A stretch of 64,000 nt of DNA, from the IMG/VR virus record IMGVR_UViG_3300014205_000174; one strand, written 5' to 3'. The notes below the pieces were generated by a model. That model was given only the letters and a program-made list of their open reading frames with translations. It was not told the origin of the DNA and did not search any database. The position numbers were made by a program, and so were the translations under genes. This DNA is from a virus. Its lineage: Duplodnaviria > Caudoviricetes. Below are positions 1,602-48,409 of this stretch, piece after piece. The stretch's first letter is position 1. Each line of letters begins with the position of its first letter.

Positions 1602-1902
1602 GCTTGGTTTGTTTTAAGATTTAAACTATTTTTTTTATTTACTTCACTTTATCCCTTCCTGGATAATCATCCAGGAAAACTAAAATATTGTCAATGTTAT
1701 CAATCCTTTCTGCATTATCGGTAAGTTGCGCCTGTATTATCTTCTTCTCCTCCCCGCGCAGAAAATAGTCTTCGTCAAATCTGTTTTTACCCATTGTGTG
1801 TGATGTGATTTTTATGAATTCACTTTCCTTGTTTGTTGCACCTACTTTTTCATGCTTTAATTTCGTCTCCTTACCAAGGATAGTCAGGTAAGAGAGCGCA
1901 GT

Positions 1903-2169
1903 GTTGTAACTACCTTTTGAATGACCTGCAATTATAGTATTGCGACTTATTGTCTGGTTACTTAGTTCTAAAGGGTTGTAACTACCTTTTAAATTACCGA
2001 CTCTCACAACTAAATTTACCGCCAGGGGTTTTATTGTCCAGTTGTAACTACCTTTCAAATTAGGGCCTGCTACAACACATATTTTAATTGCCTGTTTGCA
2101 ATAGTAGTTGTAACTACCTTTCAAATTAGGGCCTTTTACAACTACTGACAGGGTAGCTATCATCTATCA
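1903..2169 (-). CRISPR. Mini-CRISPR array C: 3 intact 36-nt repeats, 1 degenerate repeat, 4 spacers
   Basis: Repeats at 2107-2142, 2041-2076, 1975-2010 and degenerate 1903-1938 (- strand e.g. GTTGTAAAAGGCCCTAATTTGAAAGGTAGTTACAAC); spacers of 27, 30, 30 and 36 nt. Confidence 0.92.
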
Positions 2170-2295
2170 GTTGCAACTACAACTACCTTAAAAGGCAAAT
2201 ATTTTAAAAAATAAAAAAAGTATTCGGGAGTGGCTAATAATCCCTCCCGCCAAGGACGTACAACCGCCCCACAAAATATTATGTCAAAGAACTTA
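2170..2295 (-). ncRNA. Guide-RNA scaffold copy C (tracr/omegaRNA-like, fused to a half-repeat)
   Basis: Reverse complement is nearly identical to 27107-27232 and 27694-27818; differences lie mainly in a hairpin loop and the anti-repeat/half-repeat end. Confidence 0.85.
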
Positions 2296-6585: not shown

Positions 6586-8436
6586 TTAATAGACCTCGGG
6601 AAACTCCCGTACTGCAAATTCTTCGGGGAATTCGTTGATATCACTACCATGCCGCACTTTCATGCCCATTTTCTTACCAAGGTAAGTGCCCATCTGTTTT
6701 ATAAACACAGGCACGCCGGCTCTTTTACATTGCTGGATAATCTCGCCTATCCAATGACCCTCACAGGGCCGATATCCCCACTTGCCTATCTCGTTGCCGC
6801 TCTCCCCGCCAACAATAACCCAATGAATAAGCGTATAAATGCCTACATAGCCATGACCCCAGTCTTTTGGCGCGGTACCCAGCAGGCCCAAGTTAAGCGG
6901 GCTTAATAATGGCTCACAACTCAGGAAGCGGACTTTCGCCGGTACCTGGCATAGTAATGGCACCCTTTCCTCTGCACGTTCCTGATTCTCCACACTGGTG
7001 CCAAGCCATACATTTTCCCAACCATCACCCCAGTCCGCCGGTAAGTGTTCTAGAATTCGCTCCGGATGCTTTGTGAGTATTTGAAAGATAAGATGAGGAC
7101 ACTTGCGGATAATGTCCCAGGCCTCATGCCTAAAGGAATCAATTTCCGGGTGAAAGAAATCGGTGAGTGACGATGTAAACACCAGTGGCCTGCCACCCCA
7201 TGCCTCAGACTTAGTGCCCTTGTACTTCAGGGGCATATTGAATGTCGCAGGAGCCGTTCTTTTCACAATGCGACCATCATACTTAAACCTGTCACCCTCA
7301 CGCATCATATAGCAATTGTGAACTATAAATCCATTAGCTACAAATGTTTTTGAAGAGGTCTGTATATCAATCAACTCAGTTTCCCCAATATATTTTATGC
7401 CGTAAATAATTTGGTGGTTGGTAGCGGTTCTTTGGCCAGTAACAATGCAGTTTCTTAATAATGCCGGAGTAACTGTTGTAAAAAAATTTACTTTTTCAAC
7501 CAACCCACCGTGAAGAGTAAACACATTGCTAGCATAGCTGTATTTAAACCCCAGTTTATCCAGGCTTTTTGATATATTATCAACTACTTCCTTATTTGCG
7601 ACTACACCCTGAGCAATTCTTAAGGCATTAGTTCTTAATTTTTCGCGTTTTTTGGATTTATACGTACTCATATTCCCCTCTGCGTCAAACATTCCGGAAA
7701 TATAGCCCCTATGCCAATCTATGTCGTCTGTTGGATTATTATAACATTCCAATATTTTACTCAAAACTGGCTGGCTGCGGCTCTCAACTTTATTTATTTT
7801 AGTTTGCCCCTCCTCCGCACTAAATTCCTTTATGTCAAGCACCATATTGAACAATACTTTACAATATAGTACCACCCTGTCAAGTATTACTGTATCACAC
7901 AAAGCAATACGCCAATAACACTGTGGCGATTCCTTCTTCCATACGCTACCCCAGTCCGGACTATATTTGAATGTGCCATCTCCGTCAGTGACGCCAGCGA
8001 TATACCCTTTCATAAAAGTCTCAGTTATTGAATTCCCCTCGTATACATTCAATACATTAAGCTTCGTTTTTGAAACTTTGAGCAGGCTTAACGTCTTCCA
8101 TGGATTTCTTATTCCCAGAGAAAGGAATGGGTGGTCTTCGCTACACACAATTGTTCTGCCATTAGCTATACTTATTTCGAAAGCTGGCTTTACCACGCGA
8201 GATATCGCTTCAACGGTTGCGATTTCAAATTCTCTATATTGATTCGAAGCGTATTCCTGCACGGAAAAAACCTTGTCCCCTACTTGCAGCTCTGACATTT
8301 TTTTCCTTGTATAGTCCGCCATCAATATTATACTATCAGGGTGCAAGCAATTTTTACACCCTTCACTTTTGGGCGTACATCCCCTTGCAAGGTTATAAGT
8401 GATGTCTGTCCACGGTATGTTGGTTCTTGTTCCCAT
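6586..8436 (-). CDS. DUF5131 (phage Gp37/Gp68-like, radical-SAM-related) protein containing an intein
   Basis: TNIPWTDITYN..RGC....EGCKN/CY, SLTDFFH, FQILTKHPER, NVWLGTSVENQ, RFLSCEPLL, WVIVGGESG, VPVFIKQMG. Confidence 0.88.
   Translation of the reverse strand: MGTRTNIPWTDITYNLARGCTPKSEGCKNCLHPDSIILMADYTRKKMSELQVGDKVFSVQEYASNQYREFEIATVEAISRVVKPAFEISIANGRTIVCSEDHPFLSLGIRNPWKTLSLLKVSKTKLNVLNVYEGNSITETFMKGYIAGVTDGDGTFKYSPDWGSVWKKESPQCYWRIALCDTVILDRVVLYCKVLFNMVLDIKEFSAEEGQTKINKVESRSQPVLSKILECYNNPTDDIDWHRGYISGMFDAEGNMSTYKSKKREKLRTNALRIAQGVVANKEVVDNISKSLDKLGFKYSYASNVFTLHGGLVEKVNFFTTVTPALLRNCIVTGQRTATNHQIIYGIKYIGETELIDIQTSSKTFVANGFIVHNCYMMREGDRFKYDGRIVKRTAPATFNMPLKYKGTKSEAWGGRPLVFTSSLTDFFHPEIDSFRHEAWDIIRKCPHLIFQILTKHPERILEHLPADWGDGWENVWLGTSVENQERAEERVPLLCQVPAKVRFLSCEPLLSPLNLGLLGTAPKDWGHGYVGIYTLIHWVIVGGESGNEIGKWGYRPCEGHWIGEIIQQCKRAGVPVFIKQMGTYLGKKMGMKVRHGSDINEFPEEFAVREFPEVY
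7315..8349 (-). mobile_element. Intein (345 aa) with LAGLIDADG homing endonuclease
   Basis: Starts CLHPDSIILMAD, block B CSEDHPF, two motifs GYIAGVTDGDG and GYISGMFDAEG, ends TFVANGFIVHN followed by Cys. Confidence 0.92.
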
Positions 8437-24128: not shown

Positions 24129-24143
24129 TGGCACGGGATTTGC
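24129..24143 (+). promoter_or_regulatory. sigma54-type promoter heading the gene run that ends in the cas12f-like gene
   Basis: TGGCACG-GGAT-TTGC. Confidence 0.85.
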
Positions 24144-25942
24144 ACTACACCCGATATAACCATTCGTTAAGATGAAGAAGAAGATTAGAACTATTGAGCA
24201 CGCCAGCGGCGCTTATAAAACGATGACCCTGCAAATTCTTGGCCTCCGGTTCCCGGAATCTAATTCTGATACCCTTGAAACAATTGGCTGCATAACTTTT
24301 CAGTGTGATGCCGGCGAAGACCGCTGGTACGGTCGCAGCTATAAGGTTGAAACCGACAATCCAGATAATCTTTTGAAAATGGGCAAGTTAGCGACATTCA
24401 TTAAAAACAATGCCGATTCAGAGGCCCAGCCGCAGGAAATAAAGCTGCTTATTGGCGCTGAAGAGCACATATATCATTGCGGCCAGTACATACCGGTATC
24501 CTGCATTGGTATGAGGTATTACAAGGTGATGGATGGGGCCTCTTTTTATTCAAGCATCATTGCACCAAACGATATCATTGCCGAAAAACAACTGGTTGCC
24601 AAAAAGTGGGAGCACATGAAACTGGTTTATACTCATACCATAGCTGCATAAAAATAATAATAATATCTAAAAACATGGCAAAGTCAAACACTCCGAATCC
24701 GGACATAATAATGTTACAAAACAAACTTGCTGATATCCTCCTGCGAGTAGACGAGGGCGACGACCTTGTAATAACCGGTGTGATTGGCGGCTCTATTGCC
24801 ATGAACACAACACATATTCAGAGCGATTGTGTGGCTGAATTTGTAAACAATATCATTACTCTTTACCCGGAAATAAGGGCCTCTATAAAATGAACAACTT
24901 AAAAACAAGCGACCTGAAAACAAATATCATGGTTCGGGATTACCGGCATGACCTCCTAATGTTTGCTGCATATAAGGAATCAGTTCTCGGCCAGTTGAGC
25001 GCGCACATTCTGTCACTCCCGGACAATCCGGAAATTACCAGGGTGGGCAATGGCAACTCTTTTACCATGAGTATTTCCAGCCTTGGGAAATCATTGTCGC
25101 TGTCTGCCGAATCCTATGATTTTAAGTTCCAGTATGGTGTTATTGTTGAAAAAATAAAGAGTGCCGATGATTGCCTGTCTGCTTTGCAGAAAATAGTAGC
25201 CGATGGCTTTATTAAAACCGATAATTACGGCAAGGTTACTTTACATGAGACGGTAGTGGCATACATTAAAGATATCATTGCATAATAATGGAGCGTGACT
25301 ATAAATTCGCTATTGGGCAAACTGTATACACCTATGATGAAGACGAATACCAGTTCATAAAGGGCATAGTAACAGACAAAACCTCTGCTACAGTTTGCAT
25401 ACAATGGGAAAATAGAAAGACCGCGACCGACTACCAGCAATACGATTACGATAAATTAAAAACAGTAAAGCCAAAAAATTATAAGAAATAATGCTAACCG
25501 CAGAAACACTACTTGTACGACCTATTGATGCAGATAAAATAGCTGCATTAATTACAGCTACGCTACCTGCATTACCAGAAGGCGAGACGTACTATGTATC
25601 TCCGTATGTGGCGATAGTACCGGAATATGATAACTGCATATTGACGCCGGACTGCGATTATGACTTTTCAGTAAGCAAGATGTACATAGATGGTGCTTTT
25701 CAGCCTGTTTTTACCGTCAGTGTAAATAAGCGTATCCCTTTTACCACTGAGGACAAATTACCAGGCTACACCGAGAAACATGCATGCCTGTTTAATCTAG
25801 GCATACATACACAGGTTATTCCTTCCCTGCTAAAACAACCGGTAAGTTTACGTGAGTTTATGGGCAGTCAGTACAATTCCAATCCATGCATTAAAAAGAA
25901 CATGAAAGATTGTTTATCCGAAATCAATAATCCATAAAAATA

Positions 25943-27094
25943 ATGGCTGAAAAACGTATAGTTATTACCCGGAAAGTAAAAATAGACTTTGACGTTGCCG
26001 ACAAGGCCGCATTAAAGGAGTGCTATAATACCGTGTTCTCATGGAACCGGATAGTGCACAAGGCCGCAAACTGGATAATCACGCACCAGTACATGCAGGA
26101 AAACGTAAAGGACTTCTTCTACATTACAGATGCGATAAAGCTGAAGCTGGCCAACATCGACAAAGACGAGGACGGCATACTCACCACCAGCAAGGACAAT
26201 ACCACCTACCAGTTGCTTAGCAAAGCATTTAAGGGGGAATGCCCGATGGGTATGCTATCCGGCCTTAATACGGTTGTGTGCAAGAAATACAAGTCCGATG
26301 CCTTCAAAATAAAGAAAGGCGAAGTCTCCCTTGCCTCTTACCGCAGAAATATCCCTATGCCCATCCGGAGCGCGGATATCTCTTCCTGGGAAAAGCAAAG
26401 TGATGGCAACTATTCATTTTTCGTATACGGCCTGGCTTTCAAAACATGGTTTGGCAAAGACCTGAGCGACAACCAGTCAATATTCGACCGCGCACTGCAA
26501 ACCGGCGAGTATAAGCTTTGTGATTCATCCTTTCAACTGGAAAAGAAAGACGGTAAGTGGAAGATGTTTTTCCTGGCAGTATTCTCCTTTGACAAGGAGC
26601 TTGTTAAGGTGGATGAAAATAAAGCCGCTGTTTGCCGGCTTAGTATACAATACCCGATTGTTATTGCAGAAAAGAAAGACAAGTTCTGGCATATCGGCAC
26701 CGCTGAAGAATATATGCACCGCAGGCTGGCCATACGCGGCGCTTTACACAGGGTTCAAAAAGCCTGTAAGTATAATAAAGGGGGTAAGGGCCGGGACAAA
26801 AAGCTACATGCCATAGAGCGCTTTGAAGACGCTGAAAGCAATTACATTAATAGCCGCATGCACCTTTATAGCCGACAGCTAATTGATTACTGCATAAAGC
26901 GCGGTATCGGCAAGATTGTACTCGACAACTACAAGGAGGTTGTTGACAAGACACATCAGGAGAATGAGGAAAGTAAATTTTTGCTGAGCTCATGGAGTTA
27001 CTTTAATTTAGCTGATAAAATAAAATACAAGGCTGCAAAAGTGGGCATATTGGTGGAGATGGAAGGAGACCCGGAGCCCGAGCCAGTAATTTAG
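25943..27094 (+). CDS. Nuclease-dead Cas12f/TnpB-like RNA-guided DNA-binding protein
   Basis: ITRKVKI N-terminus, G..SL.SYR, YKLCDSS, bridge-helix region RRLAI...GGKGR.KKL, H.YSR.LIDYC, WSYF.L.DKIKYKA...GI.V; RuvC-I position reads CRLSIQYP (no Asp), RuvC-II region IVLDNY; protein ends before the Zn-finger/RuvC-III; directly followed by scaffold and CRISPR array. Confidence 0.85.
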   Translation: MAEKRIVITRKVKIDFDVADKAALKECYNTVFSWNRIVHKAANWIITHQYMQENVKDFFYITDAIKLKLANIDKDEDGILTTSKDNTTYQLLSKAFKGECPMGMLSGLNTVVCKKYKSDAFKIKKGEVSLASYRRNIPMPIRSADISSWEKQSDGNYSFFVYGLAFKTWFGKDLSDNQSIFDRALQTGEYKLCDSSFQLEKKDGKWKMFFLAVFSFDKELVKVDENKAAVCRLSIQYPIVIAEKKDKFWHIGTAEEYMHRRLAIRGALHRVQKACKYNKGGKGRDKKLHAIERFEDAESNYINSRMHLYSRQLIDYCIKRGIGKIVLDNYKEVVDKTHQENEESKFLLSSWSYFNLADKIKYKAAKVGILVEMEGDPEPEPVI

Positions 27095-27106
27095 TTTGTT
27101 TTTCAG

Positions 27107-27232
27107 TAAGTTCTTTGACATAATATTTTGTGGGGCGGTTGTACGTCCTTGGCGGGAGGGATTCTTTTCCACTCCCGAATACTTTTTTTATTTTTTAATG
27201 ATATTTGCCTTTGTTTGAAAGGTAGCTACAAC
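27107..27232 (+). ncRNA. Guide-RNA scaffold copy A (tracr/omegaRNA-like, fused to a half-repeat)
   Basis: Starts 12 nt after the cas12f-like stop; hairpins GGGGCG-GTTGTA-CGTCCT and CGGGAG..CTCCCG; anti-repeat TTTGCCTTT pairs with half-repeat AAAGGTAG; three copies in the window. Confidence 0.85.
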
Positions 27233-27424
27233 GGTAAGCCGTCGTCTACGGGCACTGTGAGTTGTAAATGACCAGGATTTGAAAGGTAGCTACAACCTTA
27301 GTCGCACAAAAGGGAGCGACCTGCATGGCTGTAAAAGACCGGAATTTGAAAGGTAGTTACAACAACCAGAGGATAACGGTTTCACGATATTGTGAATGAC
27401 CATAATTTGAAAGGTAGTTACAAC
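27214..27424 (+). CRISPR. Mini-CRISPR array A: half-repeat, 3 full repeats, 3 bounded spacers
   Basis: Half-repeat 27214-27232; repeats 27261-27296, 27328-27363, 27389-27424; spacers of 28, 31 and 25 nt; a possible 4th spacer up to a GTTGT remnant near 27453. Confidence 0.93.
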
Positions 27425-27461
27425 GAATGGTAACGGTTTTACTTAAACAGAAAGTTGTTTT

Positions 27462-27677
27462 ATGAATAATGTGCGAAAAATTGGTCGCTGTTTTAATGGG
27501 GCCGAAAGAGACGGAGGAAAGACGGTACATGCTATTGACTCCGAAAAGCCAAATGGAGACTGGTTTGGGAAGGCCGTTTGCGGAACAGAACCAGGGTATC
27601 GGGGAAACGGCTGGGCGAAAACAGATAAACCAGTAAGTTGTACACGGTGTATAAATAAAATGGCGAAACGCACGTAG
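27462..27677 (+). CDS. Small Cys/His (Zn-finger-like) protein between arrays A and B
   Basis: VHAI...AVCG...W...VSCTRC. Confidence 0.55.
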   Translation: MNNVRKIGRCFNGAERDGGKTVHAIDSEKPNGDWFGKAVCGTEPGYRGNGWAKTDKPVSCTRCINKMAKRT

Positions 27678-27693
27678 AGCGTGTGTGGCTTTT

Positions 27694-27818
27694 TAAGTTC
27701 TTTGACATAATATTTTGTGGGGCGGTTGTACGTCCTTGGCGGGAGGGATTCTTTTCCACTCCCGAATACTTTTTTATTTTTTAAGGTATTTGCCTTTGTT
27801 TTGAAAGGTAGTTACAAC
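27694..27818 (+). ncRNA. Guide-RNA scaffold copy B
   Basis: Nearly identical to 27107-27232, ending in TTTGAAAGGTAGTTACAAC. Confidence 0.85.
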
Positions 27819-28092
27819 GATTAATAGTTCAAGTTCACTGATTTTTAGTTGTATAAGACCATAATTTGAAGGGTAGTTACAACACATAAGCTACTACAAG
27901 AAGCATTTTCACTGTTGTGAAAGACCCGAATTTAAAAGGTAGTTACAACGTACATTCATTGGGCTAAATTTTGATTTGGCTGTAAAAGACCCAAATTCAA
28001 AAAGTAGCTACAACTAAAGCAGTGATATAAAACATCATGGGCCTGTGTTCACGTTACGTGAACGACCATTAAACCAGTTTAAGTAGCTACAC
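27800..28092 (+). CRISPR. Mini-CRISPR array B: half-repeat, 3 full repeats and a degenerate terminal repeat
   Basis: Repeats 27848-27883, 27914-27949, 27979-28014; spacers of 29, 30 and 29 nt; remnant AAGTAGCTACAC at 28081-28092. Confidence 0.92.
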
Positions 28093-28111
28093 CCAAAAAC
28101 AATAAGAACGA

Positions 28112-28642
28112 ATGAGAATAATATTCCTTGACATAGACGGAGTCTTAAACAGCCAGCTTTTTTACACTGAAAGAAGTCAATGCCAAAGGGCCAGTGATGG
28201 CGCAGGAGCCGACATTGACGAGCGGTGCGTTAATTACCTAAACAGCCTGATTGCAGAAACCGGAGCAAAGGTTGTGATAAGCTCCACCTGGCGGTCAGAT
28301 GGCCTTGAATATTGCAAGACGGCATTGGAGGCAAAGGGCTTTGTTGGCGAGATAATCGATGTCACTCCTCACTTACGCCACGAAGGCTGTCTCAGAGGCA
28401 ATGAAATCTACCACTGGATACAGAAAAACAGCGAGATGCTATGCGGGAGCACAAATGGCAGCGACTTCAAGGAATATGTAATATTTGACGATGATAGCGA
28501 TATGCTGTACTGGCAACGCAACAACTACATCCAGATTGACGCCTATTGCGGACTCACTCCGAATCAATGCTACAGGGCCAAATTTATTCTCTGCCGTGAT
28601 ATGACTTTCGGAGACAGTTTTGGAAATAATATAAAAAAGTAA
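28112..28642 (+). CDS. HAD-superfamily phosphatase (HAD_SAK_2-like)
   Basis: IIFLDIDGVLN, VISSTWR, RGNEI..W, YVIFDDDSDM. Confidence 0.85.
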   Translation: MRIIFLDIDGVLNSQLFYTERSQCQRASDGAGADIDERCVNYLNSLIAETGAKVVISSTWRSDGLEYCKTALEAKGFVGEIIDVTPHLRHEGCLRGNEIYHWIQKNSEMLCGSTNGSDFKEYVIFDDDSDMLYWQRNNYIQIDAYCGLTPNQCYRAKFILCRDMTFGDSFGNNIKK

Positions 28643-28750
28643 CTACAACACTATAAATTAAGGTCAGGTGGGGCAAAAAACTAAGTTTTGGCCCAGAAAT
28701 ATGTTTTATTTGATATTATCACATATCTTTGGCCCTTAATCCACCCCTTC

Positions 28751-48215: not shown

Positions 48216-48409
48216 ACAAAAAACATGCCATTGCGTGTAGTTGGGTTAGGGGCTCCCTGTTTGTGGAAATTTAGCCACATAAATGCGGCAAAAAGCACGA
48301 CTTTAATAAAAGCATGCCAACCTATGTTAAAATGAATTAAAAATAATTAAAATATAGTTAAAAACAAGGAAAGTGCTAGGTGGGGTAAAAAAACTAAGTT
48401 TTTGAAATC

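Follow-up and report, generated by a model that had tools for sequence, protein, structure and literature searches.

A probable single-piece guide RNA at the head of CRISPR-type arrays beside a nuclease-dead Cas12f gene in a large phage

The question raised by this locus is what is encoded by an element of 125-126 nt that stands in front of each CRISPR-type array in a 64-kb window (the whole stretch of DNA that was analysed, 64,000 nucleotides), and whether it can be the guide of the Cas12f-like protein whose gene lies next to it. The initial annotation, made from the letters alone, had described it as a natural single-guide-like leader, in which a tracr-like scaffold is fused to a half-repeat, and had proposed a covariance model from homologous loci as a check. 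The setting is that of a phage: the window belongs to a 211-kb contig, its genes show PHROG matches and five relatives of the locus lie on IMG/VR viral contigs, the INPHARED collection containing no near-identical phage. For comparison 168 related loci were collected, which together with the window make up the 169 sources used in the structural pattern search.

The protein, P0001, has as its best PDB match 9n9c, 'Nuclease-deactivated Cas12f' (E 6.5e-81, residues 5-369), as against 7e-38 for active Cas12f entries; NCBIfam recognises TnpB (1.5e-10) and Cas12f, and no significant Pfam match was obtained. When aligned with the active Cas12f 9nzo, the RuvC-I Asp is replaced by Arg (AVCRLS) and the RuvC-II Glu by Asp (IVLD), and the chain ends about 90 aa early, before RuvC-III, with RuvC-III and the zinc finger absent. 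By this alignment P0001 is a dCas12f that has lost the catalytic RuvC. Entry 9n9c stems from the work in which dead Cas12f proteins of Bacteroidota were found to use natural single guides of 85-105 nt and to start transcription together with a dedicated sigmaE (Hoffmann, Wiegand et al., Nature 2026, PMC13472631; structure preprint 10.1101/2025.06.10.658880).

Three scaffold copies, A, B and C, almost identical to each other, are present in the window, each with an array behind it, which bears out the annotated opening of every array by an element of about 125 nt; copy C lies 24 kb off on the opposite strand and again precedes an array (Table 1). The layout is the same in each cassette, namely the boxA-like motif, two hairpins, a U-rich linker, a short hairpin and the 3' half of a repeat. 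Alignment of the three copies shows them to be unrelated upstream of TAAGTTCTTTGACAT, where identity starts sharply. From there on they agree across both hairpins and the linker, except for one base in the linker T-run of B and four positions in the hairpin-2 loop of C (GGATTATTAGCCA in copy C versus GGATTCTTTTCCA), in line with the loop variation noted at the outset; the other differences are confined to a few bases before TTTGCC and to the third hairpin. Copy C also carries a 6-nt duplication, GTAGTT, ahead of GCAAC. Each cassette begins directly 3' of the stop codon of an upstream ORF, with no promoter of its own seen, and a search of Rfam with positions 26900-28200 gave no match at E up to 1.

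Behind each cassette there are 3-5 diverged full repeats of 36 nt, separated by spacers of 25-31 nt and showing 72-89% identity to the reference repeat. The divergence is not even along the repeat: for ten full repeats the consensus match per position is 0.77 at 1-15 versus 0.94 at 16-36, as expected if, in the words of the first description, repeats vary in their 5' half and keep the 3' part. The anti-repeat looped to a half-repeat of that description holds in part. The hairpin formed by TTGCCTTT-GTTTG-AAAGGTAG is indeed there; the 'half-repeat', however, is in fact the whole first repeat, which has diverged in its 5' half and has 72% identity to the reference repeat. Between arrays A and B lies an ORF of 71 aa (27462-27677, +), rich in Cys and possibly a zinc ribbon, with no Pfam or PHROG match and no homologue in the related loci, and a terminator-like hairpin is found at 27668-27686.

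Table 1. Positions of the features discussed, numbered along the 64-kb window.
Feature	Position	Strand	Remarks
Nuclease-dead, C-terminally truncated Cas12f (dCas12f), 383 aa, P0001	25943-27094	+	PDB match, active-site alignment
Cassette A scaffold	27107-27232	+	12 nt after the dCas12f stop codon
boxA-like GTTCTTTGACAT	27110-27121 (A); 27697-27708 (B); 2292-2281 (C)	+ (A); + (B); - (C)	cassette starts
Hairpin 1, GGGGCG-[GTTGTA]-CGTCCT	27132-27149	+	RNAfold; loop 27138-27143 is the pseudoknot 5' strand
Hairpin 2, CGGGAG..CTCCCG, CGGGAGGG..CCACTCCCG (CGGGAGGG..CCACUCCCG in RNA letters)	27153-27177	+	RNAfold; variable loop
U-rich single-stranded linker, GAAUAC-U7-A-U6...	27178-27204	+	AAUAC/AAAUxx-U-rich segment kept after hairpin 2 in relatives
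Hairpin 3, TTGCCTTT (diverged 5' half of first repeat) with AAAGGTAG (repeat 3' half), loop GTTTG	27205-27225	+	RNAfold
TACAAC, pseudoknot 3' strand	27227-27232	+	directly ahead of the guide; helix columns 8-13 with 97-102
Array A	27233-27460	+	guide 1 27233-27260; full repeats 27261-27296, 27328-27363, 27389-27424, guides after each
Cassette B	27694-28095	+	scaffold 27694-27818; repeats end 27883, 27949, 28014; degenerate repeat ends 28095
Match of covariance model R1, cassette B	27719-27784	+	E 3.7e-5
Cassette C	1835-2295	-	scaffold 2295-2170; repeats end 2107, 2041, 1975, 1903; degenerate repeat ends 1835
Match of covariance model R1, cassette C	2270-2201	-	E 3.7e-6
sigma54-type promoter motif TGGCACGGGATTTGC	24129-24143	+	heads gene block 24172-27094, which ends with the dCas12f gene; putative promoter

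Concerning the fold, the transcript would form hairpin 1, hairpin 2 and a third hairpin, in which the first repeat folds its diverged 5' half back onto AAAGGUAG. In the RNAfold prediction UUGCCUUU pairs with AAAGGUAG, by a stem that measures 8 bp in copies A and B but is shorter in C, and UACAAC (TACAAC in the DNA) stays single-stranded ahead of the first spacer; this third hairpin is specific to the present locus type. Fold z-scores against shuffles are -3.4, -4.3 and -1.9 for the three copies. Among 30 relatives, three stem pairs of hairpin 1 show changes on both sides, as do 6 of the 8 pairs of hairpin 2, in which 97% of the cells of the 30-sequence alignment are paired.

The hairpin 1 loop, GTTGTA, is the exact complement of the TACAAC that terminates the repeat, as first remarked from the sequence, and the UACAAC ahead of the guide would pair with this loop as a pseudoknot of six potential pairs, three of which show compensatory changes across relatives. 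Loop and end are GTTGTA/TACAAC in the window, L002, L004, L006 and L087, GTTGTG/CACAAC in L001, GCTGTA/TACAGC in L008-L011, GTTGCA/TGCAAC in L016, L047, L090 and L091, GTTCGG/TCGAAC in L012 and L086, and CCTGTA/TACAG or CTTGCA/TGCAA in the sigmaE clade; L089 is a partial exception, with loop GTTTAA opposite TTACAAC. Counted over 140 distinct scaffolds, the complement of the scaffold's own loop follows downstream in 80 of 92 cases for TTGTA, 9 of 13 for CTGTA and 5 of 6 for TTGCA, compared with about 8-10% for a wrong complement. When the full structure with the pseudoknot is imposed on the 30-sequence alignment, 90.8% of the cells are paired and 12 of the 20 pairs show double changes, 3 of them in the pseudoknot. 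The covariation score of the whole structure is reached by 0 of 500 shuffles, and controls in which the helices are slid pair at 25-47%. The covariation looked for in homologous loci is thus found, and the compensatory changes uphold the predicted pseudoknot; the claim that TGCAAC of copy C retains the pairing through G-U is also correct, the alignment containing a single U.G cell at one pseudoknot position. A different arrangement, in which the repeat end pairs contiguously with GUUGUA-CG-UCCUU and opens hairpin 1, is less likely because the hairpin 1 stem covaries. Since a short repeat/anti-repeat pseudoknot is a known feature of Cas12f1 (PMC11246509), the loop/repeat-end pairing is, by its position and base changes, the counterpart of the known Cas12f guide pseudoknot and not a new invention.

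The structural pattern search finds the hairpin 1/hairpin 2 pair in 100 of the 169 sources, usually directly 3' of the gene, cellular sigmaE-type loci included. A covariance model, R1, was built from 21 cellular sigmaE-clade scaffolds, the window and its close array-linked relatives being left out. Run over both strands of the 64-kb window, it yields three matches, all of them the cassettes (E 1.7e-6, 3.7e-6 and 3.7e-5). As R1 matches exactly the three cassettes, the scaffold core is homologous to the guide RNAs of the sister clade, for which both the ends and the binding to the protein have been determined experimentally. A sigmaE-type dCas12f guide has four paired regions plus the guide (10.1101/2025.06.10.658880), and four paired regions are likewise present in the window element, namely hairpins 1, 2 and 3 and the pseudoknot. 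The R1 match, the folding and the covariation all agree with the proposed joining of a tracr-like scaffold to the 3' half of a repeat. The further proposal, that the first spacer is expressed as a single-piece guide, is backed by the homology to sister-clade single guides, which the available part of PMC13472631 describes as defined by RIP-seq, and has to be read as an analogy. By the same analogy, drawn from RIP-seq and cryo-EM of sigmaE-type dCas12f, a dCas12f dimer would bind the four-helix core, with the first spacer as its single-piece guide, and, as the sister clade and the missing catalytic residues suggest, would bind matching DNA without cutting it. With good though not full confidence we therefore read the element as the folded guide-RNA handle of a phage-borne nuclease-dead Cas12f, fused to the first guide.

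That the guide is fused, rather than made in two pieces, is likely by analogy. The family as a whole forms a series: a separate tracr with an array (L086, L008), fusion of the tracr to an entire first repeat by way of an anti-repeat loop (the first cassette of L001), fusion to a repeat's 3' half only, followed by an array (the window, L002, L004, L006 and L089), and single guides alone or in tandem (sigmaE clade); L018 has a fused unit with only short repeat remnants behind. We consider unlikely the competing view that hairpins 1 and 2 with the T-run are a separate short tracrRNA and that an ordinary array with a degenerate first repeat follows, all crRNAs pairing in trans. The U7-A-U6 tract after hairpin 2 could release such a short tracrRNA, but the terminator scan does not call hairpin 2 and the T-run, because the T-run starts 5 nt after the stem, an equivalent AAUAC-plus-U-rich linker runs inside the sister-clade single guides, and the upstream boxA would counter termination. 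Canonical Cas12f1 does work with a tracrRNA plus a crRNA (PMC11246509), the first unit does align with full repeats at 72%, and in L086 and L008 the scaffold is separated from the first repeat by 60-90 nt and a long anti-repeat; at the window locus, in contrast, the long anti-repeat to the repeat 5' half is absent (no complement to that half is found in the window scaffold, whereas L001, L008 and L086 do have one) and in all three cassettes the first unit has come to form a cis hairpin with its own 3' half. Very improbable, and already disfavoured, is that the element acts solely as a CRISPR leader, or as a terminator or attenuator of the gene upstream, and does nothing as a protein-bound RNA. 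Its place directly after stop codons and its hairpins with a T-run would suit that function, yet three helices, the long-range pseudoknot among them, carry compensatory changes, the element matches a model of experimentally defined guide RNAs, and the copy 24 kb away on the other strand is also located in front of an array.

Regarding transcription, the motif at the 5' edge of the cassettes resembles the boxA consensus of B. subtilis (AUGAUCUUUGAAA) and E. coli (UGCUCUUUAACA) (PMC13753749). A complete Pedobacter genome has the exact 12-mer five times; of four copies checked, two are located in rRNA operons, in the stretch that separates the spacer tRNAs from the 23S gene. This is the classical boxA position, and the identity with the Pedobacter rRNA-operon spacer motif supports the original labelling of the sequence as boxA-like. 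A boxA-type motif occurs 7-27 nt upstream in 25 of 135 distinct scaffolds, the expectation being 0.0027 per 45-nt window. As in the boxA/Nus antitermination of rRNA operons and CRISPR arrays, a UCUUUGA-type motif, identical to the rRNA-operon spacer motif of Bacteroidota, stands at the 5' edge of a long untranslated RNA, a likeness that in the present case is one of sequence. Given that each cassette starts where translation of the preceding ORF ends and shows no promoter, the motif can sensibly be read as an antitermination signal: GUUCUUUGACAU would load the host Nus antitermination complex, which would keep RNA polymerase going through the untranslated, structured and U-rich array. Boxes of this kind are not mentioned in the accessible text of the dCas12f paper PMC13472631, nor is the pseudoknot in the accessible texts of PMC13472631 and 10.1101/2025.06.10.658880.

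As it has no promoter of its own and lies at the end of the gene block headed by a sigma54-type motif, cassette A is probably transcribed by read-through from that block; for cassette B read-through is uncertain, since it lies behind a terminator-like hairpin. The pattern TGGCACG-N4-TTGC (sigma54-type -24/-12) occurs 16 times in the window, where 1.05 occurrences would be expected, and most of these sites lie a short way upstream of an ORF (examples are 18484, 20964, 22175, 24129, 30650, 44947 (-), 45950 and 61810), and the phage seems, by this enrichment, to rely on a sigma54-type promoter class. Readings of TTGACATAATAT as a sigma70-type or a Bacteroidetes-type promoter were discarded, as the spacing does not fit. 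It should also be noted that four cellular sigmaE-type loci (L128, L140, L015 and L051, 4100-5900) contain tandem arrays of 3-8 complete scaffold-plus-guide units after the dCas12f gene, in which several units are each preceded by the boxA-like GTTCTTTGAAA; the accessible texts of the dCas12f papers make no mention of such a word before the known omegaRNA-like tandem arrays.

The role of the repeats behind the fused unit is a separate matter. The downstream repeats keep AAAGGTAG-TACAAC and its complementarity to the loop, and their 5' halves drift; because they keep exactly the part that pairs with the scaffold, they probably borrow it, in cis on the precursor or in trans, and the trans use of the scaffold by downstream crRNAs that had been suggested initially is plausible from these repeats; relatives in which tracr and array are separate, and those in which the loop covaries with downstream repeat ends, point indirectly the same way. 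Duplex energies of scaffold with full repeat are no better than those with shuffled repeats, a comparison that says nothing either way on trans pairing. In its widest form, which we offer tentatively, one scaffold would serve every downstream repeat that keeps AAAGGUAG-UACAAC, in trans or on a boxA-protected precursor, and a 383-aa binder on a jumbo phage would thereby run at least 14 guides from three cassettes, silencing host defence or rival-phage genes. If true, this would be a natural and very compact multiplex CRISPRi with a tracr-in-leader design. It is possible instead, and we hold this too to be doubtful, that only the fused first guide of each cassette works and that the repeat-spacer units behind it are decaying relics of an ancestral CRISPR array. 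The repeats do differ among themselves (72-89% to the reference repeat) and the terminal ones are degenerate, the locus has no conserved neighbour gene in common with its relatives, and in the published scenario arrays shrink once the nuclease is lost (PMC10691335). Decay is nevertheless uneven, the better kept positions 16-36 being those that hold the pseudoknot strand and AAAGGTAG, the loop covaries also with the ends of downstream repeats in L001, L008 and L086, and array spacers next to dCas12f match genomic sites in the data of Hoffmann et al. (PMC13472631), as far as the available part of that report goes.

Two observations in relatives concern the arrays. At 2720-3300 of L042, a scaffold whose hairpin 1 is almost identical to that of the window is followed by an AT-rich stretch with ..TACAAC or ..GCAAC words every ~25-35 nt, so that its repeats look as if they had shrunk to the strand that would pair in the pseudoknot. 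One guide, GTCGGGAAATTTAACTCC[C/T]CTTATTCTCAG, is common to L002/L003 (7230-7290) and L004 (4470-4540), the other guides being different, and in L003 one repeat-spacer unit is repeated; to judge from the guide common to L002/L003 and L004, some guides may be fixed and not recent acquisitions.

Of the 14 guides located behind a recognisable repeat, 13 gave no target. Exact 20-mers of guides A1, B1, C1, A2 and C3 have no counterpart in viral contigs; blastn-short of 15 candidate guides (including the sequence after the degenerate repeat ending at 28095) against the collected loci returned only chance-level 13-16-mers, and when arrays A and B were compared by BLAST with 401 Bacteroidota genomes, no protospacer was significant (best match of spacer size, E 7.6e-4 per genome). 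The one lead to a target is given by guide M6, the last of array C, which has an exact 14-nt match at 48362-48375, 33 bp upstream of a sigma54-like motif, for which the chance expectation is roughly 0.02. A motif AGGTGGGG(C/T)AAAAA(A)CTAAGTTTT occurs at 28666-28689 and 48378-48402, each time directly upstream of a sigma54-like motif; the first copy is preceded by the repeat-like AAAAAGTAACTACAAC (28634-28649), and the second immediately by the M6 match. Outside the phage, a cellular Bacteroidota array of the same repeat family (GTTGTATATGGTCTTAATTTGAAAGGTTGATACAAC) was met in genome G128 (L177, G128:C16, ~1500-1800, minus), and no scaffold was detected in the 3-kb L177 locus.

In order to look for a partner of the protein, an HMM of 60 sigmaE proteins from cellular loci was used. 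It has no match among the ORFs of the window or of the close relatives searched, mostly viral or metagenomic, with the exception of a Chitinophagaceae MAG locus (L089), where two ORFs match; the upstream ORFs also show no Pfam sigma domain. Because no sigmaE gene accompanies dCas12f, the likely outcome of binding would be steric repression of host or rival-phage genes. Six ORFs, namely five upstream ones and the small one between arrays A and B, were looked for in the related loci and none recurs there, hence the conserved module is the protein with its RNA cassettes.

Compared with the natural single guides of dCas12f-sigmaE systems, as presented in the accessible texts of PMC13472631 and 10.1101/2025.06.10.658880, the window has the same truncated, RuvC-dead effector, a same-strand guide directly after the gene, a homologous hairpin 1/hairpin 2 core, four paired regions and a guide at the 3' terminus. 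It differs in that the window and its close relatives, L089 excepted, are without the sigmaE gene with C-terminal extension, in its phage setting, in the full CRISPR-type repeats and spacers behind the single guide, in having three cassettes of which one is distant, and, arguing by analogy, in a function that is probably binding and repression and not activation. Closer to it is the non-rpoE CRISPR-associated dCas12f cluster of Hoffmann et al. (Extended Data Fig. 1a,b; Chitinophagaceae MAG), for which the available part of the report (PMC13472631) proposes a repressor role: dead Cas12f occurs with arrays, and a covarying putative guide RNA lies upstream of the array, in both. The Chitinophagaceae MAG homologue, L089, is 47% identical and has the layout of the window including the boxA-like motif. 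The examples of that cluster are bacterial loci described by bioinformatics only, and the available part contains no mention of phage carriage, multiple cassettes, the boxA-like motif or pseudoknot covariation.

With the Type V-F1 Cas12f1 systems (Un1, As, Sp, Cn) the locus shares a 5-7-bp repeat/anti-repeat pseudoknot next to the guide (PMC11246509) and repeats that start with GTTG.. and end with ..CAAC. In the window, however, a cis hairpin takes the place of the long repeat/anti-repeat duplex, the scaffold measures ~100 nt versus ~200 nt, the nuclease is dead and the repeats are not identical. Unlike a TnpB omegaRNA, the element does not overlap the 3' end of the ORF; it begins past the stop codon in all three copies, two of which are not adjacent to the gene.

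The evolutionary scenario of Altae-Tran et al. (PNAS 2023, PMC10691335) bears directly on the direction of change. There, a Cas12f lost RuvC-III, its array was reduced until a half repeat was left close to the tracrRNA, and fusion gave a new omegaRNA that keeps the 3' end of the repeat. The anatomy is the same as that seen in the window, i.e. tracrRNA plus half repeat, repeat 3' end kept and RuvC-III lost, with the difference that in the scenario the array was minimised before fusion, whereas here the fused unit is accompanied by an array of several repeats. In the published phylogeny dead Cas12f falls within Cas12f1, and the tracrRNA-half-repeat fusion is taken there as a secondary re-emergence of the single guide (PMC10691335), so that the initial idea of an intermediate on the way from TnpB omegaRNA to CRISPR/tracr has to be abandoned in favour of the opposite direction, from CRISPR back to the single guide. 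A fused natural single guide for dCas12f, moreover, is already known, having been proposed in 2023 and shown in 2026: given the work of Altae-Tran et al. (PMC10691335) and the 2026 experiments (PMC13472631), the locus is a new example and not a new principle.

What it adds is modest, namely phage carriage, three cassettes, coexistence of fused guide and array, the boxA-like motif and explicit covariation of the pseudoknot. It displays a stage of guide-RNA evolution that had been inferred before but not observed in such a form: the tracrRNA has already fused with the first repeat, and a multi-repeat array survives beside it. The comparison set spans the whole range from separate tracr, through fusion to a full repeat and to a half repeat, to the single guide only. 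Two details, loop/repeat-end covariation across dCas12f guides and an rRNA-type boxA heading many cassettes, are absent from the accessible portions of the dCas12f literature compared. The locus also points to the use of RNA-guided DNA binding, and not cutting, by large phages, and, for compact multiplex repression tools, the combination of a 383-aa binder, a scaffold of ~100 nt and possibly an array that shares it would be of interest.

A final point concerns two features elsewhere in the window. A DUF5131 protein (phage Gp37/Gp68-type), encoded at 6586-8436 (-), is interrupted by an intein with an HNH-like insert. Between 45868 and 46772 there are four copies of ATTTTGCCGCAGCAAAA..., spaced by ~290 bp, each of which opens with the short palindrome TTTTGC-CGCA-GCAAAA.
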